Shown one piece after another: positions 2,849-23,186 of a stretch of 64,000 nt of DNA (its first letter is position 1; each line of letters opens with the position of its first letter). Below the pieces are notes generated by a model, which did no database searches, was not told the DNA's origin, and worked only from the letters and a program-made list of their open reading frames with translations. Source of the DNA: Scenedesmus sp. PABB004 (taxonomy: Eukaryota); assembly GCA_014905635.1 (NCBI GenBank), contig JABVCE010000017.1:1-64000 (forward strand), read 5' to 3'. A program made the position numbers and the translations under genes.

Positions 2849-5800
2849 ATGCGCGCGGCGCGCCGGCGCGCGCCGGCACCGGCGGGCCTGGCGGCGGCGC
2901 TGCTGCTGCTGCTGCTCGCGTCGGCGCCGGCGGCGGCGCAGGCGCCCGACGCGCCCGAGGCGCGCGGCGTGGCGGCGGTGCCGTCGCCGGCCGGCGGGGG
3001 CGCAGGCGCCGAGGCGCAGCCCGCCGGCGCCGCGCGCGCGGCGGCGACGGCCGCGGCGCAGCGCGCGGGCGGCCGCACCGTCATCGCCAAGCTCCGCCGC
3101 GGCATCTGCGACTGGCGCACCGGCGCGATCGACGACGCCGACCTGGCCCGCGTGCTGCGCCGCGCGGCGCGGGAGGGCCTCGCGTTCCGGGGCGCGCTGC
3201 CGACCAACTGCTGGCTCGAGTTTGCGCCCGACGCCTCGCCCGAGCGCACCGCGGCGGCGGTCGCGGCGCTCGCAGTCGGCACGGGTGCGAGGCGCGGCGG
3301 CGCCCGGCGCGCGCGGCGCGCGGCGCGCGGCGGCGGCGGCGCCAGCCAACCGGTGGCTACCGGCAGAGCCGGGCGGGGGGCGCCTGGCGGCGGGCCCGCT
3401 CACCGCCCGCCGCGCCCACCGCGCGCAGAGGCCTCCGACGCGGGCGACGCGTCGGCCGCAAGCCTCGAGGCATCCCCGTTTGCCATCGCTGACGTGTCGG
3501 TCCCTAAGACGGTGACGCTGCCCGCGCCCACGCGGCAGACGCCGGAGCAGGCGGCCGCGGCGGCCGAGGCGGCGTCCGCAGCAGAGGCGGCGGCGGCGGC
3601 CCGCGGCGGCGCGGCCGCGCCGCGCTCGCCCGCGACCGTCCCGCCGGAGTGCCCCAACGGCGTGTGCCCCAAGCTCTGGGGCATGCAGGTGCGCGCGCGC
3701 GGGCGGCCCGGCGCTGCGCCCGCCTCGGCCGCGCTGAGCTGCGCTGCCTGCGCCTGCGCACGCACACGCGCGCCCACGCCGCCGCACAACTCGGCTCCCT
3801 CGCCGCGCCGCCACCACCACCACCGCCGCCGCCGCGCCCAGGCCATCAACGTGTCGCCGGTGTGGGAGGACTTCCTGCCGGTGCCGACGTTCCTCAAGTT
3901 TGCGACCTTCATCGACACGGGTGCGCGGCGGGGGTGTTACTTTTGTTGTTGTTTGTTATTTGCACCAAAATAACAGACATGTTGACAAAAAGTCAGCGTT
4001 TCGTCGTTGGAGCGGAGCGATTGGGGCCAGCTCCAGCCGCTGCGCCCGACGCGCGCGCGGCGGCCCCGCGCGCGCCCACCGCCCACCGCGCCGCTGCCCC
4101 CCATTCCCCTCCCCCCCCCCCCGCAGGCGTTGACTTTTCACACAACGACCTGAAGGGCCAGTTCAATGAGCAGGACAGCGCGACGTTCAACCAGGCGGGC
4201 AACCAGCCCCCCAACGGCGCGAGCAACACCGCGCTCGCGCAGAGCTGCATGGGCTTCCACGGCACGCACGTCGCCGGCACCGCCGCGGGCGCGTGGGCGG
4301 CGGCGACACGCGCGGTGCGTGTGTTCCCCGCGCGCCGCCGCCGCCGCGGGGCCGGCGCCTCCGCCGCCGCGCGCCGCGCGGCACGCCCTCCCTCCTCGGC
4401 CCTCCCCTCTCCTCAGCCCTCTCCTCAGCCCTCTCCTCAACCCCCTAAACCCCTCGTTTTTGCTGTAAACCCTGCCGCAGGCATCGCGGGCGTGCTGGGC
4501 CCCTCGCAGGGCACGCTCATCAGCTGCACGCCGTTCTACCTACCCACGGGGGCGCAGTGCGCGCCCGCGGGCGAGAGCCAGGCGCGCGGACCGCGCGGCG
4601 CGCGGCGCGCGGCGGGCGGGGCGTTGTTGGGGTGGGTGGGGGGCGGCGTGGAGCGCGGCGCGTGTTTGTGTGTGTGCGCGCGCGCAGGGCTCGCCCCGCA
4701 CACACCCAGCCAACGCACCCACGCCACACACACCCACGCCAACGCACACACGCCGCCGGTGCCATGCGCGCAGGTGCAATACACCGACGCCGACGTCGCC
4801 AAGTGCACCAAGCACGCCTCACAGGCGCGGCGCGGCGCCGCCGCCGCCGCCGGCGCGCCCCCACGCACCCGCGCGCCGCGGCCCCGCTCACCCACGCTTG
4901 CCGCCCGCACGCCTGCCCGCCGGCGCCGCCCCCCCCCCCCAACCCCGACACAACCAATCAATCAACCCAACGCAACCAACCAACGCGACAAAACCAACCA
5001 AACCCCGCGCCCAGACCAACGCCAACGCGGTGGTCAACCTGAGCCTCGGCGCCCTGTACAAGTTCACCGAGGCCGACTGGACCCTGCAGCGCGACAGCAT
5101 CAAGCAGTTCATCTGCGACCAGGTGTGTAGGGGGTCAGGGTTTAGGGTTGAGAGTAAAGGGTTCTAGGCGGGGCTCAGGCGGGGGCACCGGCCGTCGCGC
5201 GAAACGCGCGGTCGCGGCGTGCGCGCGACCACTCCCCCCCGCGCGCTCGCTCCCGCGTCCCTCCCGCCCCGCAACCCCTGCTGAACCCCCGCCCTCAACC
5301 CCGGCACCCCCCCCTACCTAACCCCGCGCGCGCAGGACGGCATCGTCGTCGCGGCGGCGGGCAACTACGGCGTTGAGATGACCACCCCCGGCACCCTGGC
5401 AAGCGGCTTTGCGTACGATGGCTTCTACCCCGGCGGCTTCGCCGTGAACTTCCCAGACTGCGTCCTCGCCGTCGCGGGTGCGCGGCGCGGCGCGCGGCGG
5501 CGGTGCCCGCGGCGGCGGCGGCTCGCTTCTGTTCGTTTTGACGGCATTTGTGGCGTGCGGGGGCGCCGCGCCGCGCGCGCGGGCGTTTTCCCCCCGCCTG
5601 CCGCCCGCGCGCGGCGGCCGCCCGCGCTCGCCCACGCCCACACGCGCCACAAACCCACACGCCCACGCACCACACCCACACAACCGCCGCGCAGCCGTGG
5701 ACGAGGCGGGGCGGCTCGCAGACTTCAGTGACTTTGGTCCCTCCGTCTCCCTCGCCGCGCCGGGGGTCAACATCCTCAGTGACAAGCAATCCGAGTTCAA

Positions 5801-7213
5801 CGGCAACGCCGCGGCCGCCGACCCGTGGGCCGACGAGACGATGGCGGGGACGAGCATGGTGCGGCGGCGGCGCGGCGCGGCGGCGCGGCGGGGAGAGCGG
5901 CGGCTGCGCTGCGGCGGGGCGGCGGGGCCCGCGAGCCGCGCGGCGGCGGCGCTGCGGGCCCCCGGGGGCGCGCGCTGTGCGCTGCGCGGGCGCGGGGCCC
6001 GCTTGAGCGCGCGCCCGCCGCCGTCGCCGCCGCCGTGTGTGCCCGCAGGCCACGCCGCACGTGACCGGCGTGGCGATGGTGCTGCGCAACGCCTTTCCGG
6101 CCGCCACCGCCAAGCAGGCGCGCCTCACCGGGCGGCGGGCGGGCGCGGGCGCGCGGCGTCCAGGCGCGTGGAGGGACCGCCCCCTGCCCTCGCTCGCGCT
6201 CAAACGCGCGCCGCCTGCTGTGCCGCCCCGCAGGTGGTGGGGTGCCTCAAGTCCACGGCGACCAAGGCGGTGAAGCCGCCGGCAAGCTTCCCCAACCGGT
6301 GCGCCCCACTCTCCGCCCCCCTCCCGCTAGCGCCGCCCGGCGCCGTCCGCCCTCGCCCGCCGGCGCCCTCTCGCCAGCGCGCCGGCCCGCCGCCGCCGCC
6401 CCGGCCCACCGCCGCCGCCCTGGCCCGCCCGCCGCCGCCGCCGGCCCGCCCGCCGCCGCCGCCGCCCCCGTCAGGTCCATCGGCGGCGGCATGCTCGACG
6501 CGGGCGCGGCGTACGCGTGCCTCCAAGCCATCATTGACCCGCCCTCCTCGCCCTCGCCGCCGGGGCCGCGGCCGAGCCCGAGCCCGCGCCCGCCCAGCCC
6601 GCGCCCGCCGCGCTCGCCGAGCCCCGCGCCGCCGAGCCCGCGCCCGCCGAGCCCGCGCCCGCCCGCGGGCAAGCGCTGCCCCAAGACGGACCTGCCCGGC
6701 TGCGTCGACGCGGCCTCGGGTGCGCCGCGCGCCGCGCCGCGCGCCGCGCCGCGCGCCGCGCCGCGCGCGCGCCCGCGCCCGCGCGCGCATGCGCGCGCGC
6801 CCCGCGCCGCGCCGCCCTCTCCCACCCGCCCTCTCCCACCACCCGCCCGCCCGCCGCTCCCCGCCACTCGCCATTCCCTGCCGCCAGGCGAGGTCGTGCG
6901 GGAGGGGTCGGACTGCCGGACCTCATACTGCCTGCGTGTGGAGCCGCGCGGCGGGCTCAACGCGCTGCGCCCGCGCATCCCGCGCAGCGAGACGCACATC
7001 TGCCGCTACGCGCTGCTCCCCGCGGGCGCGCGGTGCCGCGGCTCCGTCAGCCCCTGCACGACGTGGGCGGTCTGCGCCGGCGGCGCGCCGGAGTGCCCGC
7101 CAAACGTGGTGCACGCCGACGGCACGGCGTGCGCCAACCCCAACGGACTCTACCCGCGCCCCGCGTCGCCCGCGCCGGCGCCCAGCAGCGGCGGCGGCGG
7201 CGGCACGCTCGCT

Positions 7214-7252
<39 letters not shown>

Positions 7253-7597
7253 GGCGGCGGCGGCGGCGGCACGGGCGCGCTCGGGGACCTGAGCGTGCCG
7301 CGCAGCCGCGCGCGGCGGCGGCGGCGCGCCACCGCGCCCACGGCCGACGCGGGCGGCGGCGGCTCCGTCGCGGGCAGCGCCGTCGCGGGCGCGCTGGACG
7401 CGCTCGTGGCGGGGCGCGACGCGGCGAGCGCGCGGCTGCCGGTTGACCAATACGAGGGGTATGGCCGCGGCGGCGGCGACTCCAGCGGCGCCGACTCTAG
7501 CGGCGGCGACAGCAACGCCGGCGGCCAGCAGTCGCGACCCACCGCGGCCGTGTGCGGGCAGTGCCAGGCGGGCGTGTGCGTGGGCGTCGCGTGCTGA
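2849..7597 (+). CDS. Secreted subtilisin-like serine protease (S8) with SP-rich linker and C-terminal disintegrin-like Cys-rich domain; multi-exon
   Basis: Signal peptide LAAALLLLLLASAPAAA. Catalytic motifs across exons: FIDTG (~3910), HGTHVAG (~4258), VVNLSLG (~5030), VVAAAGN (~5345), LAAPGVNI (~5751) and GTSM|ATPHVTG (~5848/6049). Stop at 7595-7597. Confidence 0.9.
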
Positions 7598-7842
7598 GCT
7601 GAGTGCGGCAGCAGGGGCAGGGATGGGAGAGGGGGCGGGACCTTCCTTGCTGCGGCGCAGGCGTGGACTGCGTGCTGTGCGTGCGCACACGGGCTGCGTG
7701 TCTGTTCAGCGATCAGAGCACTGGCTGGTTGGCATGGCTGTATTTGCCCCGCCTGCCGTGGGGATTGGTGGCGTGACGGTGCTGGCGCTGTGGGCACACG
7801 TGGCGTGTTAACGGCCACAGTCAACAGCTCACGCCCTGCCGC

Positions 7843-10800
7843 TCAGCTGCCCTGCCGCGCCCGCTTGCTCGCCGGCTGCAGCTGGGCCTGCTCCGACCGC
7901 GCCACCAGCACCTCGTCCACGCGGCCCGCCAGCCAGCGCTGCCGCTCCTCTGCGCCGCGCAGCTCTGCCCACTCAAACCAGGGCACCACCACCAGCGAGT
8001 AGCCCCGCGCCACCAGCGCCCAGTTTCTGCGCGCGCGGCGGCAGATGGGCGGGCGGGCAGCGTGTAAGCGCCGCTCACTGAGCGGGCCTGCCTGCTTGTG
8101 GGCGCGCATGAGGGCTGGCCAGCGGAGCGCCGCCGCGGCAGCGCCCGCACCTGAACAGCGTGTCTCCTGTGAGGCCGCGGCCGGGCGTCGTGAAGTGGAA
8201 AGGCCCGTCCGCCTCCACCGCCAGCCGCGCGCCGGCCGCCGTCGTGGCGGTGATGTCGACCCGGCAGGCGCCGTCCGGCGCCGCCGGCTGCTCCATCGCC
8301 GGCGGCGCCGCCCAATCCAGCGGCAGGCGCTGCAGCGCGGCAAACACCTCGCGCTGCAGCTGAGAGGTTGGCTGTTTCTGCGTCGCCTCCAGCGACGCGG
8401 CCCACGCTGCGCGGCAGGCCTCCAGCTGCTGCGGCGCCAGCGCGCCCGCCAGCCCCGGCCTCCCGCTGCCGCCAGGCAGCTGCAGGCCGCAGTCCGTCGC
8501 CCACAGCTGCACCTGGTGCAGCTGGCACAGATCCTCAGGTGCCATGGCACCCCACTGCTCGCTGGCGGCGCGCGCCAGTATCGCCAGCTCGCTTGCGCAC
8601 TGCCGCAGGTCCAGCACCGCCACAGCCCAGCAGGTGTTCGCCAGATCCTGCTCCGGCCAGCTGGTGCCCGCCTGCACCTGCGCCGCCGCCCGCCGCAGCA
8701 GCGGGCCCAGCAGCCGCTCGTCCGCGTGGCCCAGCTTGGCGCACGCCAGGGCCATGTTGGCAAAGGCTTGAGCGCTGCTGTCCGCCAGCAGCCGCTCCAG
8801 CTGAGCCGGCTGCTGCGCCAGTGCCGCGAGCAGCTGGGACGGCAGGTGACGCAGCTGCCCGCACGCCCACAGCATGTTGGACACAGCCTGGGGTGTGGCC
8901 ACGCCCAGCTGCCGCTCCAACGTCACCAGCAGCGGCTGCAGCTGCGTCTGCGGCACCTCGCGGCCCAGGGTGGCCACCGCCCACAGGGTGTTGGCCACAT
9001 CCTGGGGCTTTGCCACGCCCAGCTGCCACTCCAGCGCCGCCAACAGCTGCTCCAGCTGCGGCTGCGGCACCTCGCGGCCCATGGTGGCCACCGCCCACAG
9101 GGTGTTGGCCACATCCTGGGGCTTTGCCACGCCCAGCTGCCACTCCAGCGCCGCCAACAGCTGCTCCAACTGCGGCTGCGGCACCTCGCGGCCCATGGTG
9201 GCCACCGCCCACAGGGTGTTGGCCACATCCTGGGGCTTTGCCACGCCCAGCTGCCACTCCAGCGCCGCCAACAGCTGCTCCAGCTGCGGCTGCGGCACCT
9301 CGCGGCCCATGGTGGCCACCGCCCACAGGGTGTTGGCCACATCCTGGGGCTTTGCCACGCCCAGCTGCCACTCCAGCGCCGCCAACAGCTGCTCCAGCTG
9401 CGGCTGCGGCACCTCGCGGCCCATGGTGGCCACCGCCCAGAGCGTGTTGGCCAGCTCTTGGGGCTTGGCCGCGCCCGCCTGCCGCTCCAGCGCCGCCAGC
9501 AGCTGCTCAAGCTGCCGTTGCGGCACCGCGCGGCCCATGCTCGCCACCGCCCACAGCACGTTGGACACAGCCTGGGGCGAGGCTGCACCCAGCTGCCGCT
9601 CCAGCGCCGCCAGCAGCTGCTCCAGCTGCGGCTGCGGCACTCCGCGGCCCATTTCGGCCACCGCCCACAGCGTGTTGGCCAGCTCTTGGGGGTTGGCAAT
9701 GCCCAGCTGCCGCTCCAGCGCCGCCAGCAGCTGTTCCAGCTGCCGCTGCGGCACCGCGCGGCCCATGCTCGCCACCGCCCACAGCGAGTTGGCCACGTCC
9801 TGGGGCTTTGCCACGCCCAGCTGCCGCTCCAGCACCGCCAGCAGCTGCTCCAGCTGCGGCTGCGGCACCTCGCAGCCCATTTTAGCCGTGGCCTACAACG
9901 TGTTGGCCAGCTCTTGGGGGTTGGCTGCGCCGAGCTGGCGCTCCAGCGCCGCCAGCAGCTGCTCCAGCTGCCGCTGCGGCACCGCGCGCCCCATGGTCGC
10001 CACCGCCCACAGCGTGTTGGCCACGTTTTGAGGCGTGGCTGCGCCCGGCTGCCGCTCCAGCGCCGCCAGCAGCTGCTCCAACTGCGCCTGCGGCACCGTG
10101 CGACCCGTGGTCGCCACCGCCCACAGCGTGTTGGCCACGTTTTGGGGGTTGGCAATGCCCAGCTGCCGCTCCAGCACCGCCAGCAGCTGCTCCAGCTGCG
10201 CCTGCGGCACCTCACGGCGCATGGTGGCGACCGCCCACAGCGCATTGGCCACGTACTGAGGTGTGGCCGCGCCTTGCTGCCGCTCCAGCGCCGCCAGCAG
10301 CCGCTGCACGTCGCCCTGCTCCAGCGCCACGCCAGCCTTGGCCGCGCCGTACGCCGCGCTGGCCAGGGCCTGGGCATTGGCGCCGCGCAGCTGCTCAGGG
10401 GCCAGGAACCGCGCCAGGCAGGCCGTGAGCAGCGGCCCGTTGTAGCCGCACACGCCGGCCGCCCACACCACGTTGGACAGCTCCCGGCAGCGACACGCCT
10501 GCAGGAGCGCCGGCTGCAGCAGCTGCTCCTCCACGCGCCGCAGCAGCTGTTGCGCCGCGGCCTGGGCGGCGCTGGTGCGGATGACGCCGCGCCGCACCCA
10601 CTGGCCCAGCTGCGTGGCCGTCGCCGCAAGGTGCTGGTGCTGCATTTCCGGGCTGCCCGCGTGCTGCTCCGCCAGCTGCCGCAGCTCCGCGAGGGTGGCC
10701 GCCTCCTTGATGGCCGTCATGAGCGCGTCACGGCCCTGTCGGCGGGTGAGGCGTGCACAGCGTCAGGGCCAGGGCTGGCGCAACGGCTCCACCGCACCGG

Positions 10801-12440: not shown

Positions 12441-13625
12441 TCAGCAGCAGGAGCTGGTCTTGCGCGCCTGCACCGTGGTGTTCATGTCGAGCGTGTCCGG
12501 CACGTAGCTGCGGGGACGCGCGGGGGAAAGAGGAGCGGCGGCGGCGTGCGGCGGAGTTGGGTCAGGCGGGCCGCGGCGCGCGGCGCGCGGCGCACGACGC
12601 GCGCGAAAAAAAAAACGCGGGCCCCTCCCGCCCGCCCGCCCGCCCGCCGACAAAAACAAAGCCTCCCGCGCAAAAAACGCCCGCGCGCAGGCGGCGCGGC
12701 GCGGCGCTCACAACTCCTCCTCCGGCTCGTTGCGCAGCGCGTGGCGCGCGATGCAGGCGAACGCGGGCTCCACGTTGACGTCCTCCTTGGCGCTCGTCTC
12801 GTAGTGCGGGATGCCGCCCTTGGCGCTGCGGCGCGGTTTAGGGAGGGCGGGGCCCGGGGAGGGTTTAGGCAGGGTTGAGGGAGGGCTCAGGGAGGAGGGT
12901 TCAGGTGGTGAACGGGGTTTGAAGGGTTTGAGGGGCGGTGAGGCGCGGGGGGCGGGCGCTGCGCGCGCTGCGTTGCTCCCCGCACGCGGCCTCACGAGCT
13001 CCCCTCCTCCCACACACGCACACGCACGCGCGCGCTGTTGGGCCCTGAACCCTGAACCCTAAGCCCCCCACACGCACGCACACACACGCGCGCCCCCACC
13101 TGCACCAGGCCTTGGCCTTCTTCTCCGCCACCTGGCGCCCCGCGCCGCCGTCCTCGTCAATCTTGTTGCCCAGCACCACAAACGGGAACGACTCGGGGTC
13201 GCGCGGCTGCGCCTGGGGGGGGGGCGTGGTGGGTTTGGGGGGGGGGGGCGTTGGCGGGGGAGGGGGCGGCAGGGGAGGGAGGTGCGGTGTGGGAGGAGCG
13301 CGGCGACGGGTCAGGGGGGGGGGGGGGCGCGCGCGCGCTCGCTCGCTCGATCTCGTTCTCCGACGGTTCCCGCTGAGGGCGAACGAGCGGGCGCGCGCGC
13401 GCGCCGCCGGCAACAAGCTCGCGCGAGCGACCACGCCCGCCCGCGCCCGCGCTCGCTCGCCGGAGTCTGCTGTCGCAAGGCGGCAGAGTCCAGCGAGCGA
13501 GCGCGCTCGCCCGCTCGCGCTCGCGCTCGGCGGCAAGGACCGGACGCCGAGCGCAAGCGAGCGAGCGCGCGCGCGCGCCGCGCCGCGCGGCCCGGCCCGC
13601 GCCCAGCCCAAGCTTGCGCGCCGCC

Positions 13626-13663
<38 letters not shown>

Positions 13664-14475
13664 CCCGAGTTCGAATCGCAGTCCCGTTGCTCACAGTCCC
13701 ATCTAACAAACAGTCCTATTCAAACACACACAGTCCCATTCAACACACTCAAGCGTTCATGCGCCCGCACCTGTATGAGGAACTCGTCGCGCCAGGTGTC
13801 GAGAGCGTCAAAGGTCTTTGTCGCGTTGACGTCATACACGAGCACGCAGCAGTCGGCGCCGCGGTAAAAGGCCACGCCGAGCGACTGGAAGCGCTCCTGG
13901 CCCGCGGTGTCCCAGATCTGGGGGCGGGGGCGCGGGGCGCGGGCGGCGGGGGCGGGTGTGAGGGGGGGAGGGCGCGGGGGGCGGCCGCGCGGCCGCGCGG
14001 CGGGGGCCGCGCCCGGCCGGCCGGCAGCTGCCCCGGCCGCGGCCCGCCGGCCCGCCGTCGGGGGGCGCTTGCCGCCGGCTGCCGGCCACGCAGCGCCGCC
14101 GCCGCCGCCGCGTGCATGCGGCGCGCAGCGGCCGCATGCTGCTGCGTCCGCGGCCGCCGCTGCCGCTGCGTCCACGCCTGCTGCGCACCTGCATCGTGAC
14201 GAGCTTGTCGTCGATCTGGATCTCCTTGGTCAGGAAGTCCGCGCCGATGGTGGCCTTGTACTCCTTGCTAAACTTCTTCTGCACGTACTGCGGCCGCGGC
14301 GGCGCGGCGCGGGGCGCGCCGCTGATCAGCGCGCCGCGCCGCCCGCCGCCGCCGGGCGCCGCGCCGCCCGCGAGCGGGCGGTCGAGGGGGGCACCTGGTT
14401 CATGAGCGACGTCTTGCCCACGCCCGAGTCGCCCAGGATGATGACCTTGAGCAGCTTGCGCTTGCGCGTCGCCAT
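12441..14475 (-). CDS. RAB7: Rab7/RabG small GTPase, multi-exon
   Basis: [49 protein letters not shown]...|[24 protein letters not shown]...|[11 protein letters not shown]...|YETSAK...|TSSCC* (C-terminal prenylation CC). Confidence 0.97.
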
Positions 14476-14692
14476 GTTTGCCCGCTTCTCTGCTCCGGCT
14501 GCGGCTGCTGGGCCTGCCCTGGCGTCGGGGCGGCGCGGCGCGATCGGCGGACACGGGAGTGTGCCCGCGGGCGGCGGGCGGGCCGCAGCAGGGCGCGGGG
14601 GGCGTGCCAAAGCCGCGGCAGCAGGTTCCGCACGTGTGACGCGCTCTCGCCCGCCCGCACAGGCTGGCGAAAGAGCGCGGTGTCACACAGCC
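14476..14692. promoter_or_regulatory. Putative bidirectional promoter between RAB7 and the RRM gene
   Basis: About 220 bp separate two divergent start codons. No specific motif was identified. Confidence 0.5.
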
Positions 14693-16227
14693 ATGTCCAG
14701 CCCGGGAGCCAGCCCACGCAAGCCGGAGACAGGTGCGCCCGCGGGCGCGCCGCTCGCTGGCCCGTGCGGCCCCGCACGACGCCGGTCGGCGGGAGCCGCG
14801 GCGTGCTGGCTCGTGCGCTTGCGGGCGACGCCGTCCGGGCGGCAGGGGCGGCAGGGGCGGGGTGATGGGCCCCGCCCCGCCTCCCCCCGCGCGGCTGCGC
14901 CGCCCTCACGCCCTGGCCCGTCGCCCTTGGGCGTGCCGCAGGCGGGATGGACGACCACGCGGAGCCCGCGGCGGACCCGGCGTTCAAGGTGTTCGTGGGC
15001 GGCATCAGCTGGCAGATGAACGACGACGACCTCGCCAAAGGTCCGGCGGCGCCGCGGGAGGGCCCGTCGACGCGGCCTGGTCCCGGCCCAGCGCAGGGCC
15101 GGGCAGCGGAGCGGCGGCGAGCAGCAGCGCGGCGGCGGCGGCGGCAGCAGGGGCAGCAGCAGCAGCGGCGGCGGCCGACGCTCCGCCGCCCGCCGCAGAG
15201 TTCGAGTCGCACGGCGCCGCCAAGGCGGAGGTGATGCTGGACAAGGCCACGGGCCGGTCGCGCGGCTTTGGGTTTGTCTGGTTCAACGATCGCGCAGGCA
15301 TGGAGGACGCGATCCGCGACAAGCACAACACCGACGTCGATGGCCGCCGCATCTCCGTCAAGGAAGCCATCCCGCAGGAGCAGATCCCGCCGGGTGCGTG
15401 GTTGCCTGTCCGTCCTGCAAGCTCGCAGGACGGTGGCGGCGGCGGCTCACGGCTCGCAGGCGCGGAGGCGGCGGCGGCTCGCGGCTCACCGCCGCCGCGG
15501 CGCGCCGCCCGCGCCGCGCCGCCCCGCAGAGCAGCGCGGCCGCGACCGCCTCCGCGCGGCGGCGCCGCCGCCGCGGTACGACCGCGGCTACGACAGGTGC
15601 GCCGCGCCCCGCGGCGTCTGCCGCCGCGGCCGCCGCCCCCGCCCCCCGTCGACGCGCGCTCACACCGCCGTGCGCGCCGCCGCCGCTGCCCGCGCAGCCG
15701 CGGCTACGACCGGGGGTACGACCGGGGGTACGACCGCGTCTACGACCGCGGCGGCTACGGCGGCGGCTACGGCGGCGGCGGCTACGGCGGCGGCGGCTAC
15801 GGGTGCGGCGCGCGGCGCACGGCGCGGCGCGGGGGGCGGCCGCGGCGCGCGGCGCCGCGCGTGTGCCGTCGCGCCGCCGTGCAGAGCGCCCCGACGCCCC
15901 AGCTCACGCCGCCCGGGCTCACGCCGCCGCCGCTGCCGCCCGCCCGCCCGCCCGCCGCGCAGCGACTACTACGCCCGTGACCCGTATGGCGGCTACGGCG
16001 GCGGCGGCTACGGCGCGCCGCCGCCGGCGTACGGCGACGCGCGCGGCGGGTACGACAGCCGCGGCCCGCCCGGCTATGGCGGCGGCGGCAGCTACGGCGG
16101 CGGCTACGGCGCGCCGCCGCCCGACCGCGGCGGCTACGGCAGCGGCGGCTACGGCCCCGAGCGCGGCGCGCCGCCGCGCGGCTACGGCGCGCCGCCGCCG
16201 CGCGCTGGGCCCTACGACCGGCGGTAG
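14693..16227 (+). CDS. Glycine-rich RNA-binding protein (single RRM plus YGGG/YDRG tail), multi-exon
   Basis: RNP2 KVFVGGISW and RNP1 GRSRGFGFV, then [10 protein letters not shown] and Gly/Tyr/Arg repeats. Exon 1 (14693-14732) splices in frame to 14942. Confidence 0.92.
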
Positions 16228-17865
16228 GGCGGCGGCGGGCATGTCATCGGGAGCCGGCGCGACGCGGCGGGTCGCCGGCGGCAGCGCACTCGGAGCGCCG
16301 GCGCGACGCGGCGGGTCGCCGGCGGCAGCGCACTCGTAGCGCCGGCGCGGCGCGCCAGGAACAGCCGCCGCCGGCGCGCCGCGGCGGCGGGCTGCGCGCG
16401 GTGAGCAGCGCGGCGCCCCAGCCCCGCGGACGGCGCCGGGGATCGCGGGGAGCGGCAGAGGGTGGGGCAGTGCGGCGCCGGCAGAGCGGCAGGCGCGCCC
16501 AGCGCGCGGGGCTGGCAGCGGGGCCGCGCGCCCGGCCGCCGCCCGCGCGCACGCGGGGCCAGCGCGTGCGTGGTCCACTGACGCGTCGCAGCAGTGTGGC
16601 TGCGCACGCGCTGGCCCCGCGCGCGCGCAGCGGTGTGGCGGCGTCGCGCACAGCGGGCAGGCGGCGGCAGGCAGGCAGGGCCCTTGCACAGCGCGGCCGG
16701 CGTGCGTTGCGTGTCTCCCGACTGTCTGCTGCTGCACCTGGGGGCGGCGGGGCGGGGTGCGCGCAGCTGCAGGCGCAGCCGCAGCGCAACTGGGCGCGGG
16801 GGGTCGCACAGCGCAGCGCGCAGCGCGCGGGCCGTGCGGCCAGGTTGTGTGCAGTGGCGGCGCGCACAGTGCAGTGGCGGGCGCGCACAGTGCAGTGGTT
16901 CTTTTGCAGCGTGCACGGCGCAGCACGCGTCAGCGGTGTGCGCCAGGCCGCAGCCGGCAGACGGGTCAGGGTAACAGCCTCACCTCTGCACCAGCCGCAG
17001 CGGCCTGTGCGCGCAGCCGGCAGCCGGGGCGCTGCCTGCCGTCTCCCTGCCCAGGTGAGTGGGGCGCGGCGCGCGCGGGCGGCGGCGGCGCCGGGGCGCG
17101 CGCGCGGCCGCCACAAGGCGAGGGCTGGGCGCGGCGGCGCCGGGGTGCGCGGCGCGGCGGCGTGCGGTGGCAACCGAGCGGCGTGTGGCCGATCGCGCGC
17201 CCGCGCTCGCCGAGGCGCTCAAACCGCTGAAGCCTGCGCCGCCGCGGCCGCGGAACGGGCGTGAGCCGCAGCTGCCGCTGGCCACATCGCGCCCCTCCGC
17301 GCCGCTCGGCACGCCATTTGCGGTCACGACACCGCGCACGCCCCGGTCCAGCGCATTGCGAGCCGCGGCGGCCTCGCGGGACGCGGCAGCGAGCTCCACC
17401 CGCGACGCGACAGGGCGGCGCGTGCAGCGATCAGCGCAACACACCCCCGGCGCGATACAGGCGAGGCCCGGGGGCGCCCGGCAGCGCCGCGGCGCGGCAC
17501 TGGCCGTGCGGGCTGCCGCGCCCTCTCGCCACGCCCCCGCGCCCGGCCAGGCGGCGCCGGCGTGCCCAGCTGCCCGGGCCTCCGCGCTGCCGCCGGCCAC
17601 GGCGGGCGGCCCACCGACGGCCGCGCCGCCGCTGCTGCCGCTGCCGCGCGGCGCTCGCTGCTGCCGCGCGCTGCTCGCAGGGGCGCGTCGAGCGGAGCCG
17701 GCCAGGCAGCAGGCCCAGCCCACCAGCCTCTTCTCCTCTTCCTGCTCCAGCGGCGGCGAGCCCGCGCGGCGCGCGCGGCGGCCCCGGCGCACAGAGGCAC
17801 CGCCGCTCCGCGGCGCGGCAGCGCGGCAGCGCGGCAGCGCGGCAGCGCGGCAGGCGGGCAGCAGC

Positions 17866-19963
17866 ATGGACGCCGCCGGCGTGGCGGTGCCGGGCGGCGG
17901 CGGCGGGCGCGGCGCGTTCATCACCGACGTGAGCGACGCGCTCATCGCGCTGAGCTATGGCGTCATACCATTCCAGGCGCGGCGGCGGGGGCGGCGCTGC
18001 GCGGCAGCAGCCCGGCGCGGCGGCGCGGCGCAAAGCGGCGGCGCGGCAGCAGCGCGCCGCGGCGCGGCAGCGCGGCAACGAGCGGGCGGCGCCGCGCACA
18101 GCAGCACAGCGGCGCAGCTCGGGCGGCACCGAGCTCGGCCCCCCTCCCCTCTGTCCCCGCCGCCCAGGTGCTGTACTTTTTCTGGCGCCTGCGCTCCCGC
18201 CGCGCGCACTGGGTCGTCGGGGGCCTCTTTGCCAGCTTCATCTTCCTCTGTGCCATGACCCACCTGCTCAACGTGCTCGGCATGGTGCGGCGGCGGTTTA
18301 GGGCTTGATTGCTCGGTCGAGTCTGGGGCACGCGGGCGCTGCGCGCGGGATCTGTCGGGCGTGTGGGCTGCGGCTGCAGCGTCTTCGCTGCTGAGCGCGA
18401 GCGGCGCGGGCGGCGCGCGCCGCCGCCGGGCCGCCGCCCGCTGAACCCCGCCCGCCCTCTGTTCGGCCCCGCCGCCCTCGCTCAACCCGCCCCGCCGCGC
18501 CGCGCCCCGCGGCCCAGGTGCCGCTCAACACGTGGTTCAAGGCCGCCGACGCCGCGGTGTCGGTCGCGACGGTTCTCACGCTTTTCCACCTGCTGCCCAA
18601 GGTGCGGCCGTCAGCGGCGGTCAAAGAAACACTGCCTGTTATTGTTGTTATCTGTCTGTTATTGTTGGAATGGAGTGTCTCGACTGACTGGCTGTCTATG
18701 GTTTGGTGGTCTGACGCGGGGTGGTGGGCGCGTGTCGTGAGATGCGACGCGCGCTGTGGGAAGGGGTGGAGTCGGAGCTGACGCGTCGCCCGCCGCGCCG
18801 CCGCCGCCGCCGCGCCGCGCCGCGCCGTCGCACTCGCGGCGCCCAGATCCTCGCGTGGCTGAAGACCGTGGAGGAGCACAACCGCTGCGAGGCAAACATG
18901 GTGAGTGAGGGCGGCGCGGCGCGGCGCGGCGCGGCGGGGGCCCGCGGGGGCGCGACCCACGGCTCGGGGCGAGCGCGGCGCGGCGCGCGCCCGCCCGGCC
19001 GCGTCTGCGCGCGCGGCGGCGCTGCACGGATGTCAGCTCCTGCAGGAGTTGCTCCCGAGGCAGCGCCGCCGCGCCCGCGGGCGCGGGGCCCGCGGCGCCG
19101 CGCGCTCGCGGGGCGCCGCGCCGCGCCGCGCCGCCCCGGCCGTACGCGGCGGGCCGCTCACGCGCCGCCCGGGCGCCGCGCGCCGCACCGCCCTGCACGC
19201 CCAGGTCACCTTTTTCACGAGCGTGCTGCTGCCGCGCACGGGCAGCCGGTCCGCGCAGCTCCTCGCCGTCGCGCGGAGCCTGCGCCACATCCTCGGCAGC
19301 GACGCCATCGCCGTTGTGCAGCGGTGCGGCGCGGCGCGGCGCGGCGCGGCGCGGCGCGGCGGCGCGGGGCGTGGGGCGCAGCAGTAGAGCCTCGGGGCTC
19401 GCCGGCCGCGGGCTCGAGGGCGCGCGGCGCGCCGCTCTTGGCTCGGCGCCCCTGCGCCGCCGCGACCCACCCCGCCGCCGACGCCGCCGCCGCCGCCGCG
19501 GCCGCCGCCGCGCCGCCGCCGGCGCAGCTCCGCGTCTGCGCACGACCCGCTGTCGATGCGCGCGGTGCCGCTTGACTGGGAGTACGTGGCCCTGCTGCCG
19601 GCGCCGATCGCCGACGCCAACCGGCTCTTCATGGAGCAGGTGCGGGGCTGTTAGTTGGCTTTGTTGTTTCACATTTTGAACGCATGTTACTCGTCATCTG
19701 ACACATTTGAGTGTGAAGCGTCCCGCCCGCGCCGGCCGCGGGCCCGGGCCCCGGCCGCGCCGGCGCCCGACCGCCGCCCCGCCGCTGCTGCGCCCCGCCG
19801 CCCCGCCGCCGCCCCGCCGCCGCCCTCCCCTCGCCGGCAGGTGTCCAACTACGTCAAGTCGCTGCGCCCCTCGGCCGACGCGCCCGACGGCGCGCCCGCC
19901 GGCGCGCCCGGCGGCGCCGCGCCCGGCGGCGGCGCGGACACGGCGCTGCTGATCAACATATGA
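17866..19963 (+). CDS. ETR1-type ethylene-binding-domain membrane protein of about 240 aa, without histidine kinase or receiver
   Basis: Exons 17866-17976, 18168-18284, 18518-18601, 18847-18900, 19205-~19323, ~19528-19639 and 19841-19963 give SDALIALSYGVIPFQ|VLYF...FASFIFLCAMTHLLN...|FKAADAAVSVATVLTLFHLLPK|IL. This matches ETR1 TM1-3 (SDxxIAxAYFSIP; FIVLCGATH; KxxTAxVSxATA...P). Confidence 0.85.
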
Positions 19964-21338
19964 CGCGCGAGGGGGGTGGTGCAAGGCGTGCGGGGGTGGA
20001 GATGGCCGCGGGGGCGAGCCGCGGCGGCCGCGGGGCCGGCAGCAGAGAGGCTGCCGCCTGGGGGCGCGCTGCGGCAGTCAAGGGGGGCGGCGGGAGGCCC
20101 GCGCGGCGCCGGGGCCGCCGGCCGCGCGGGGCAGCCGGCGCGGCGGCCGCGCATGCGCAGCGCCCGCCACGCTGCGCCGTGCGGCGGCGGCGCGGCGAAT
20201 AACGGTCGCCGTCGCGGGGGCGCCGGCGGCTGGTGCCGCCGGCCAGCCCCGCGCCGCGGAGGGCACTCGGGGGAGGGGAGGGGCTCGGGGGGCGTTGGGG
20301 AGGGAGGCTCGCCTGCTGTTTTTGGGAGGAACTCTCATCTTTGCGTATGAGTCTGCTTTGCCGCCTGCAAATGCTGCTGTCAGGGGCGCGCGGCGCGGGC
20401 GGCGCGCCGCCCACGGGGCGCCGCCAGCGCGGGCGCCCGGCACTTGGTCTGCCGCGTCGCCGCGCCCCCCTGCGGGCGCGCGGGGCGCGTCGGCGCGCTG
20501 CCAACCACACACACACCACACAGCACCACAAACCACGCCTTGGAGAGCACCGTCACCGGGACACCGCCACCCCAACCACTGCGCACCACTCTGGCGAGGT
20601 TCGCCACGCCTCCACGCGACGCGCCTGCACGCACGCGGCGCGCGCCGCACGCGCGCGCCGTGCGGGGCCCCTCTCTCGCCCCGCGGCGGCGGCGCGGCTG
20701 CGCGGGCAGCCGCGCCGCCGCGCGCGGGCGCATCACTGCGACTGCTCGGGGCCGGCTGCCGCGCGGGCGCGGCGGCGGCGGCCGTCACTAGACACTTGGT
20801 GCACGGCTGCTGCGCAGCGCAGGCGGCCGCGTGCTGCGGGCGCGAGTTGGCGGCTGTCTCCCGCCCCACGTCGCCGCGCTTGGCCTCACCGCCGTCGTTG
20901 CACGTTGAGTTGGTGACGCGACCAGCCGGCTCAGCGCGGCGCCCGGCAGCGATCGATCGATCGGGGTTCGCCGCCGGCGGTCAGAGTCTTGCGCCCCAAG
21001 TGCGTCGCACCGAAGCGACGACCCCCGGCACGGAGCGCGGCAGCAGCAGCGGCAGCAGCAGCGGAGCGCCAGCTTCACGACCCGCCGCCGCCTCCTTCGC
21101 GCCCGCGCCTACGCGCCCGCGGAAGAGCTTTCGTGCCACATTGACCGCCTGAACGCGCCACAGCCGCGCGCACGCGCCACGCAGGCAGGCCGGGGGCGGC
21201 GCCAGTAGCGCGGGGTCGCCAGTGCCGCCGCCGCGCAGGCGCCTCCGCGAGGCCGCGGCGGCGTGCGCTGGTGACGTCTCTGGTGACGTTGCTGGCGACG
21301 TAGTTGGCGTCGCTGGCGAGCCCGGCGCCAGCGGCACC

Positions 21339-23186
21339 ATGAGCGCCCTCGAGGTGCTGCTGGCGTGGCGGCCGGACCAGGCCCTGCGGGCCGACTGGTC
21401 GGCGTGCGGCACGCGCGGCGGCGGCGGCAGCCCTGCGCAACGTCAGGGCCAGGACTGCTGGCCCGAGCACGGCAGCGGCGTCGGCGGCCGCGGCTGGCAG
21501 CAAGCGGCGGCGCCTGGCGGCGGCAAGGTGTGTGTGCTTGGTCGCACGCAGGGCCAGCCGGTGCGGTGGAGCCGTTGCGCCAGCCCTGGCCCTGACGCTG
21601 TGCACACGCCTCACCCGCCGACAGGGCCGTGACGCGCTCATGACGGCCATCAAGGAGGCGTCCACCCTGGCGGAGCTGCGGCAGCTGGCGGAGCAGCACG
21701 CGGGCAGCCTCAACCACATCCACCTGGCGGCGACGGCCACGCAGCTCGGCCAGTGGGTGCGGCGCGGCGTCATCCGCACCAGCGGCGACCAGGCCGCGGC
21801 GCAGCAGCTGCTGCGGCGCGTGGAGGAGCAGCTGCTGCAGCCGGCGCTCCTGCTGGCGTGTCGCTGCCGGGAGCTGTCCAACGTGGTGTGGGCGGCCGGC
21901 GTGTGTGGCTACGACGGGCCGCTGCTCACGGCCTGCCTGGCGCGGTTCCTGGCCCCTGAGCAGCTGCGCGGCGCCAACGCCCAGGACCTGGCCAACGCGG
22001 CGCACGGCGCGGCCACGGCTGGCGTGGCGCTGGAGCAGGGCGACGTGCAGCGGCTGCTGGCGGCGCTGGAGCGGCAGCTGGGCACAGCCAACCCCCAGGA
22101 CGTGGCCAACACGCTGTGGGCGCTGGCAACCATGGGCCGCGAGGTGCCGCAGCCGCAGCTGGAGCAGCTGCTGACGGCGCTGGAGCGGCAGCTGGGCGCG
22201 GCCAAGCCCCAAGAACTGGCCATCACGCTGTGGGTGTGCGGGCAGCTGCGTCACCTGCCGTCCCAGCTGCTCGCGGCACTGTCGCAGCAGCCGGATGATC
22301 TGGAGCGGCTGTTGGTGGCCAGCAACGCGCAAACTCTGGCCAACATGGCCCTGGCCTGCGCCAAGCTGGGCCACGCGGACGAGCGGCTGCTGGGCCCGCT
22401 GCTGCGGACGGCGGCGGCGCAGGTGCAGGCAGACGCCAGCTTGTCAGGGCAGGACCTCGCCAACACCTGCTGGGCCGTGGCGGTCCTGGACCTGCAGCAG
22501 TGCGCAGGCGAGCTGGCGGTGCTGGCGCGCGCCGCCAGCGAGCAGTGGAGCAGCACAGCACCTGAGGATCTGCGCCAGCTGCACCAGGTGCAGCTGTGGG
22601 CGACGGACTGCAGCCTGCAGCTGCCGGGCAGCGGCGGGGTGCCGGGGCTGGCGGGTGCGCTGGCACCGCAGCAACTGGAGGCCTGCCGCGCAGCGTGGGC
22701 CGCGTCGCTGGCGGTGACGCAGCAGCAGCAGCCCGGCCAGTTCCAGTGCGAGGTGTATGCCGCACTGCAGCGCCTGCCGCTGGACTGGGCGGCGCCGCCG
22801 GCGATGGAGCAGCTGGCGGCGCCGGACGGCGCCTGCCTGGTCGACATCACCGCCACGACGGCGGGCGGCGCGCGGCTGGCGGTGGAGGCGGACGGGCCCA
22901 CGCACTTCAGGACGCCTGGCCGCGGCCTCATGGGGGAGACGCTGTTCAGGTGCGGGCGCTGCCGCGGCGGCGCTCCGCTGGCCAGCCCTCATGCGCGCCC
23001 ACAAGCAGGCAGGCCCGCTCACGCGCTGCCGGCCCGCCTGCCGCCGCGCGCAGGAACCGGGCGCTGGTGGCGCGCGGCTACTCGCTGGTGGTGGTGCCGT
23101 GGTTTGAGTGGGCAGAGCTGCACAGCGCGGAGGAGCGGCAGCGCTGCCTGGCCGGCTGCGTCAAAGCAGTGCTGGCGTGGCGGTAG
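21339..23186 (+). CDS. OPR-RAP protein copy 2 (1 core repeat), intact ORF; exons 21339-21527, 21625-22949, 23054-23186
   Basis: Highly similar to copy 1 with the same two intron positions. RAP motifs LAVEADGPTHF and RNRALVARGYSLVVVPWFEW. Confidence 0.85.

Follow-up and report, generated by a model that had tools for sequence, protein, structure and literature searches.

A predicted kinase-less protein with an ethylene receptor-type binding domain in the alga Scenedesmus sp. PABB004

The plus-strand gene at positions 17866 to 19963 of the window (the whole stretch of DNA analysed here, 64,000 nucleotides at the start of contig JABVCE010000017.1) is, as judged from its sequence, a real one, predicted to encode a 239-amino-acid protein in which an ETR1-type binding domain retains its ligand residues and no kinase follows. 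The explanation that we prefer, and to which we give slightly less than an even chance, is that the product is a functional, kinase-less membrane sensor of Cu(I)/ethylene, derived from ethylene receptors, that would act through a partner protein.

Gene model and relatives

The ATG at 17866 opens a 720-nucleotide reading frame in seven plus-strand exons, closed by the TGA that ends at 19963. Exon 1 (17866..17976, residues 1-37) encodes a Gly-rich, Cys-free N-terminus and then the first transmembrane helix (TM1) with Asp24 (17935-17937), Tyr31, Ile34 and Pro35; exon 2 (18168..18284, residues 38-76) holds the end of TM1, a loop, and TM2 with Ile62, Cys65 (18249-18251), Ala66 (usually Gly), Thr68 and His69 (18261-18263); and exon 3 (18518..18601, residues 77-104) holds a short loop and TM3 with Lys84 (18539-18541), Asp87 (Thr in bacteria), Ser91, Thr94 and Pro103. 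A cytoplasmic helix that extends TM3 is encoded by exon 4 (18847..18900, residues 105-122), and the first part of a conserved soluble domain, a helix and then loop or strand, by exon 5 (19205..19323, residues 123-162). Exon 6 (19528..19639, residues 162-199) adds a conserved AVxLDWE motif, short strands and the start of the terminal helix, which ends in exon 7 (19841..19963, residues 200-239 plus the TGA) ahead of a Pro/Gly/Ala-rich tail. The introns are 191-304 nucleotides long; all six acceptors read CAG and five of the six donors are GT, intron 1 (17977..18167) being of the GC-AG type (CAG/GCGCGG). Among 87 in-frame donor/acceptor pairs compared with the relative P0018, this GC donor gives the top score (160; best GT donor, 125), and several GC donors are apparent by eye in the kinase gene of locus L136 (below) as well. 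GC content of the window is 73-83%, and the GC3 of the 239-residue frame is 0.94.

A search of 1.84 billion representative proteins with exon 2 gave two matches, P0018 and P0019, of which the latter was a repeat artefact and was dropped; P0020 was the sole further match among 4869 candidates of 119-380 amino acids. The query had 40 residues, and algal relatives scoring below ~36 bits could be missed by it. P0018 (217 amino acids, JGI/IMG) is an uninterrupted gene on a 5.2-kb contig, and P0020 (219 amino acids, ENA), uninterrupted on a 231-kb contig, is 88% identical to it; since the two are near-copies of each other, they represent one independent lineage. Both are single gene calls that begin at TM1 and have a Pro/Ser-rich tail and a stop where the window protein ends, so that the short kinase-less design appears conserved in two other records. 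P0018 is identical to the spliced window product at 80 of 205 positions (39%), with one gap and an E value of 5e-45, over all six splice junctions; no gap falls at a junction, and identities by exon, from 1 to 7, are 10/19, 21/39, 11/28, 8/18, 11/40, 13/38 and 6/23. Because P0018 aligns across the six junctions and reaches the same end point, it lends support to the GC donor and to the gene model as a whole, as well as to the stop at the position given in the initial annotation.

The JGI label of P0018, "cytochrome/quinol oxidase subunit 4", has no Pfam support. An intron-poor alga or a large virus is a possible source of P0018 and P0020, and the replicons that carry them may be those of a giant virus or another mobile element; 0 of 6 and 0 of 128 stretches matched in searches of viral contigs, and phages gave no match. 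A fold search of BFVD gave as its best match the 289-residue viral protein A0A8E4UZR7 (E 5.3e-3, 176 columns, 18% identity; next E 0.38), which, going by the models, could reflect viral kinship or no more than a general likeness between helical proteins.

The gene model would be incomplete if transcripts were spliced from a cryptic GC donor within exon 7 to kinase exons farther on. Three weak GC donor-like sites do lie inside exon 7, and no TGTAA signal occurs at 19964-21340. Against this, however, genome-wide searches gave no Pfam match to HATPase_c, receiver or GAF within the window, and profiles from bacterial kinases, which picked up the exons of all three kinase genes used as controls (L134-L136), detected none for HisKA, HATPase or a receiver among 856 frames of the window, where the best independent E was 3.1. 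In addition, the nearest HATPase_c match on the contig is at 679 kb, an unrelated FAST-like gene is present on the same strand by 21640, and the two relatives share the stop. We consider such a longer transcript very unlikely. Thus the absence of kinase and receiver claimed in the initial annotation holds for the window, where nothing in the frames seems to point to kinase exons joined on downstream.

A strong CAG/GTGAGT donor near 17055, in the interval 17040-17690 (+), could belong to an intron in the 5' UTR of the gene; the stretch 17059-17866 has no ATG in frame. The upstream neighbour at 14900-16230 (+) has an RRM-like start and a Gly/Tyr/Arg-rich tail, and we take it to encode an RNA-binding protein. 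At 13200-14600 (-) is a multi-exon small GTPase gene, presumably a Rab7, which its translated pieces resemble. The 3' neighbour (21340-23100, +; frame 21640-22881) is a helical-repeat gene with a weak match to FAST_1 (E 2.2e-5, below the cut-off), and probably encodes an organellar RNA-binding protein.

The ethylene-binding domain

Scanned one by one against PF25487 (ETR1_N; 97 profile positions, cut-off 27 bits), exons 1, 2 and 3 match profile positions 7-22, 25-59 and 68-93 in that order (E 0.08, 1.3e-5 and 7.3e-4), each singly below 27 bits; the whole proteins P0018 and P0020 score 69.2 and 70.9 bits. The match to an ethylene-receptor profile on which the initial annotation depended is thus present, whereas exons 4-7 matched nothing in Pfam in exon-wise scans. 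Within the 40-Mb genome an exon-by-exon search, which gives a lower bound, found PF25487 at this locus only. Hydropathy of the window protein shows three peaks, as for three transmembrane helices, and the P0018 model has helices at 4-29, 35-60 and from 63 onward with pLDDT ~85-94 (mean of the model, 75). No solved chain with an ETR1_N domain appeared in the copy of the PDB that was searched.

In Arabidopsis ETR1, Tyr32, Ile35, Pro36 and Ile62 belong to the seven residues required for ethylene binding. Asp25 and Cys65/His69 of ETR1 are needed for copper and ethylene binding, and Asp25-Lys91 couples binding to output (PMC10266040; this and the other papers are cited from their accessible parts). 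Our numbering was anchored on AzoEtr1 of Azospirillum brasilense, with residues recovered from locus L142, in an alignment that included 173 bacterial domains; Asp35, Cys75, His79 and Lys98 of AzoEtr1 correspond to ETR1 Asp25, Cys65, His69 and Lys91 (PMC11819568). Asp24, Cys65, His69 and Lys84 of the window protein share columns with these four residues, Tyr31, Ile34, Pro35 and Ile62 stand in columns that are 91-100% conserved among the 173 bacterial domains, and Ser91, Thr94 and Pro103 agree with the consensus of those domains. This bears out the initial claim that the ETR1-equivalent ligand residues and the TM3 lysine are kept, and the ligand and switch residues are present in all three family members (the window protein, P0018 and P0020).

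Other positions differ between the family and the bacterial domains. Position 66 is Gly in 173 of 173 bacterial domains and Ala or Ser in the family; the His-to-Lys spacing is 15 in the family and 19 in each of the 150 bacterial rows that have both residues, and the TM2-TM3 loop of the family is four residues shorter. Position 87, Thr in 99% of bacterial domains, is Asp in the window protein and Ala in P0018 and P0020; position 95 has gone from Ala to Val or Met; and no Cys precedes Cys65 in the window protein or the equivalent Cys in its relatives. Any one of the changes at Gly66, in the His-Lys spacing or at Asp87 could alter the ligand or abolish binding. Given the change at Gly66, the shorter loop and the N-terminal cysteines missing by comparison with bacterial receptors, we regard ethylene binding by the window protein as likely, with the chances somewhat in its favor.

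The same observations could describe a copper-site sensor for a cue other than ethylene (copper status, or CO or a different alkene as the Cu(I) ligand) with the same partner-based output, since the copper ligands are intact while the position adjacent to Cys65 and parts of TM3 have changed family-wide. In a tree of 64 of the 176 rows, with no plant or other eukaryotic rows, the three family proteins group together on a long branch (100/99), separate from the 61 bacterial rows, which would also suit such a sensor, as would the report that chlorophytes are without EIN2 and EIN3 (PMC10518463). Nevertheless, every residue listed in the initial annotation as required for ethylene binding is kept, and some chlorophytes release ethylene (PMC10518463). 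We hold a non-ethylene cue to be unlikely.

The cytoplasmic domain and its possible output

About 135 residues follow TM3, of which ~105 are conserved with P0018 and the last ~30 are low-complexity; residues 104-209 align to P0018 with a local score of 142, against a mean of 24 and a maximum of 50 in 2000 shuffles. The gene was first annotated as a stand-alone binding domain followed by about 130 unrecognised soluble residues. The approximate length and the lack of a Pfam match stand, as does the absence of kinase and receiver; but some 105 of these residues form a conserved domain, and "stand-alone" needs a qualifier because that cytoplasmic domain is attached.

In the P0018 model TM3 runs as one helix from 63 to 114; a further helix (123-139) and short strands come next, and the last helix spans 173-193. 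The order and position of these modelled elements are what a GAF domain would show if its middle were missing, and the soluble part may also resemble the ETR1 linker plus GAF. By its ESM Atlas features P0018 is closest to clusters that contain GAF, among them a streptophyte ETR1_N+GAF cluster, at 0.87 (188 of 256 features), where a value below 0.9 is a lead only; nine of the ten best family hits belong to one clan. Pfam gave no GAF match in the soluble part, 36 of 60 shuffles scored as high as the real sequence in a profile alignment to 20 cyanobacterial GAF domains, and a fold search with the soluble domain (a model of pLDDT 53) had a best Z of 5.7, with no GAF among the matches listed. Fold searches with the full model returned generic helical bundles; the top match, Orai (Z 10.2, rmsd 5.0, 106 aligned), is within the chance range for helices and is therefore not used for the channel idea discussed below. 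GAF ancestry of the soluble domain stands at about even odds.

Conservation of the soluble half far beyond chance is as expected if the domain has a job. A receptor minus its kinase might instead no longer signal, and be a relic in slow decay or a buffer that persists as a sink for copper or ethylene. This would agree with the long branch in the tree, with the finding of no full-length paralogous receptor in the genome for it to pair with, and with reviews that take partial chlorophyte sequences as loss (PMC10518463, PMC10452086). Yet the frame is open through seven exons with the high GC3 given above, and both halves are conserved nearly gap-free against a relative that is 39% identical; we think a relic or buffer quite unlikely.

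A word-index search with exon 2 among proteins of 132-420 amino acids had no match in its 1 candidate, and NCBIfam had no family that matched. A metagenome scan with a degenerate TM2 pattern yielded at least 49 loci in 599 stretches, none above 52% identity over a long segment among the matches listed, and the family profile matched those loci in the binding domain only. Among 8000 scored candidates for fused longer forms (385-2000 amino acids), the one match was a bacterial PAS kinase, through the binding domain only, which is weak evidence of absence. Nine of 133 complete bacterial ETR1_N open reading frames end within 160 amino acids; of six short ones that were scanned, two carry a broken-off HisKA or PAS domain and four showed nothing informative, and the soluble domain of the family matched none of the short bacterial frames (plus-strand loci up to L142). 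At locus L138 (2917-3810), an IS1 transposase interrupts the GAF region of a plasmid-borne Acaryochloris ethylene-receptor gene, and the binding-domain fragment that this leaves behind carries no annotation.

By analogy with ETR1, the sensor that we prefer would work as follows. Three transmembrane helices would hold Cu(I) via Cys65 and His69 with the help of Asp24, and ethylene arriving at the copper would alter the Asp24-Lys84 link and move TM3. TM3 is predicted to continue without a break as the cytoplasmic helix, after which a compact conserved domain (~75-105 residues), perhaps a reduced GAF, would pass the signal on by contact with a separate protein. Partner candidates in the genome might be the hybrid histidine kinase on G000:C77 or the CTR1/EDR1-type kinase on G000:C46. 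Ethylene binding needs no kinase in AzoEtr1, whose first 130 residues suffice for it (PMC11819568). There are also precedents for output that does not depend on the receptor's kinase: in rice, the OsERS2 GAF domain binds a separate kinase, MHZ1, and inhibits it (PMC6981129), and ETR1(1-349) still signals although the site at which CTR1 docks is missing from it (PMC4238421). The predicted absence from our protein of the CTR1 docking region, the kinase domain, counts against this explanation.

The initial annotation had proposed a search of the genome for parts of the pathway, and a CTR1/EDR1-type kinase was found while EIN3 gave no match. The former, at 525-5382 of L173 (G000:C46:40500-50400), has a PF14381 match (E 2.7e-27) and then a protein kinase domain; by its domains it is of the CTR1/EDR1 type, as PF14381 also covers EDR1. 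Neither EIN3 (PF04873) nor RTE1 (PF05608) matched the genome in an exon-by-exon search in which both controls were silent. At L134 (G000:C1:3134859-3138391) and L135 (G000:C21:482640-485777) rhodopsin exons lie directly upstream of kinase and receiver exons, and these two genes look like histidine-kinase rhodopsins. Such kinase-rhodopsins, together with the high GC content and the style of the introns, would suit a chlorophyte host. L136 (G000:C77:65000-74900) contains, at ~3300-7900, a hybrid histidine kinase whose N-terminal exons are hydrophobic; it does not match rhodopsin and has a poly-Gln insert in its ATPase region. We also considered a split receptor, with a sensor-less kinase half encoded elsewhere, and rejected it: since, judged partly by eye, all three hybrid kinases carry rhodopsin exons (two) or hydrophobic exons of their own (the third), none looks like the missing half.

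A different output would be the membrane domain itself, acting as a ligand-gated Ca2+-permeable unit that would therefore need no kinase. Ca2+ permeability is reported for ETR1, ERS1 and eight homologues from streptophytes (bioRxiv 10.1101/2025.10.20.683334; PMC13261662), and the window protein has an extra acidic TM3 residue, Asp87. However, Asp87 is Ala in P0018 and P0020, the reported current needs a dimer bond between N-terminal Cys4/Cys6 (bioRxiv 10.1101/2025.10.20.683334), cysteines that the family is without, and chlorophyte or truncated receptors are absent from the Ca2+-permeable set as given in the accessible parts of those reports. We give a Ca2+ conduit little probability.

A broader reading joins several of these elements: the window protein would be the first member seen of a conserved natural family of mini-ethylene receptors, in which a reduced domain of GAF origin follows the binding domain. 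A chlorophyte would have kept this form after loss of the kinase, and the protein would bind ethylene and either send its output via a separate kinase or itself act as a gated Ca2+ conduit. As a whole we consider it plausible but somewhat doubtful. If it is true, some chlorophytes sense ethylene without EIN2 or EIN3.

Comparison with known receptors

Homologues of ETR have been described in fungi, amoebae and diatoms (PMC6324907, PMC5285503), including truncated receptor homologues in Entomophthoromycotina (PMC5285503); the accessible parts of PMC2890016, PMC9603746 and PMC9032582 added nothing further on their spread. One review states that chlorophytes lost the ethylene receptor gene (PMC10452086), and another that they keep candidate or partial sequences, which maybe mark loss (PMC10518463). 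The latter are "candidate" or "partial" ETR homologues of Coelastrella and Coccomyxa, and of Chlamydomonas and Ostreococcus; compared by description only, they are like the window protein in being ETR-like and, in some cases, incomplete, and they may belong to the same family. Since such homologues are already in print, as far as that review's accessible text goes, presence alone is not new. The literature searched, with subscription papers and supplements largely outside it, held no account of a kinase-less architecture of ETR1_N plus a short domain. Conservation of the short form with an apparently intact copper site suggests that a "partial" receptor can be design rather than decay. The family offers a natural test piece of 217-239 amino acids for how a receptor N-terminus signals without a kinase, and also for whether the Ca2+ permeability that has been reported resides in the membrane domain by itself; the small size suits structure work.

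In terms of its predicted domains the window protein is a member of the ETR1_N family but, having no kinase, not a canonical receptor. Like bacterial receptors (AzoEtr1 and the cyanobacterial ETR1_N-PAS/GAF-kinase proteins) it has the same conserved columns, and phmmer gives 18-41 bits against 81 bacterial domains; unlike them, in the examples scanned, it has no kinase output in cis, and the family forms its own clade with the loop shorter by four residues. With the plant subfamily I receptors Arabidopsis ETR1 and ERS1 (ETR1_N, GAF, HisKA and HATPase, with or without a receiver), a comparison made via papers and Pfam alone, it shares the three-helix ETR1_N domain, the equivalent Asp, Cys, His and Lys, a cytoplasmic helix and domain directly after, and the lack of an extra N-terminal helix. 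It differs from them in having no kinase, receiver or N-terminal Cys pair, in the replacement of Gly66, and in a cytoplasmic domain much shorter than GAF (133 profile positions). The closest functional parallels are engineered ETR1(1-349) and the rice OsERS2 GAF-MHZ1 pair, where a membrane domain plus GAF, or the GAF, signals without a kinase of its own (PMC4238421, PMC6981129). Of these, however, one was made by truncation in the laboratory and the other is part of a full-length receptor, and both belong to plants that have the complete pathway, whereas the window protein comes from a genome in which no other ETR1_N was found and is the product of a natural gene.
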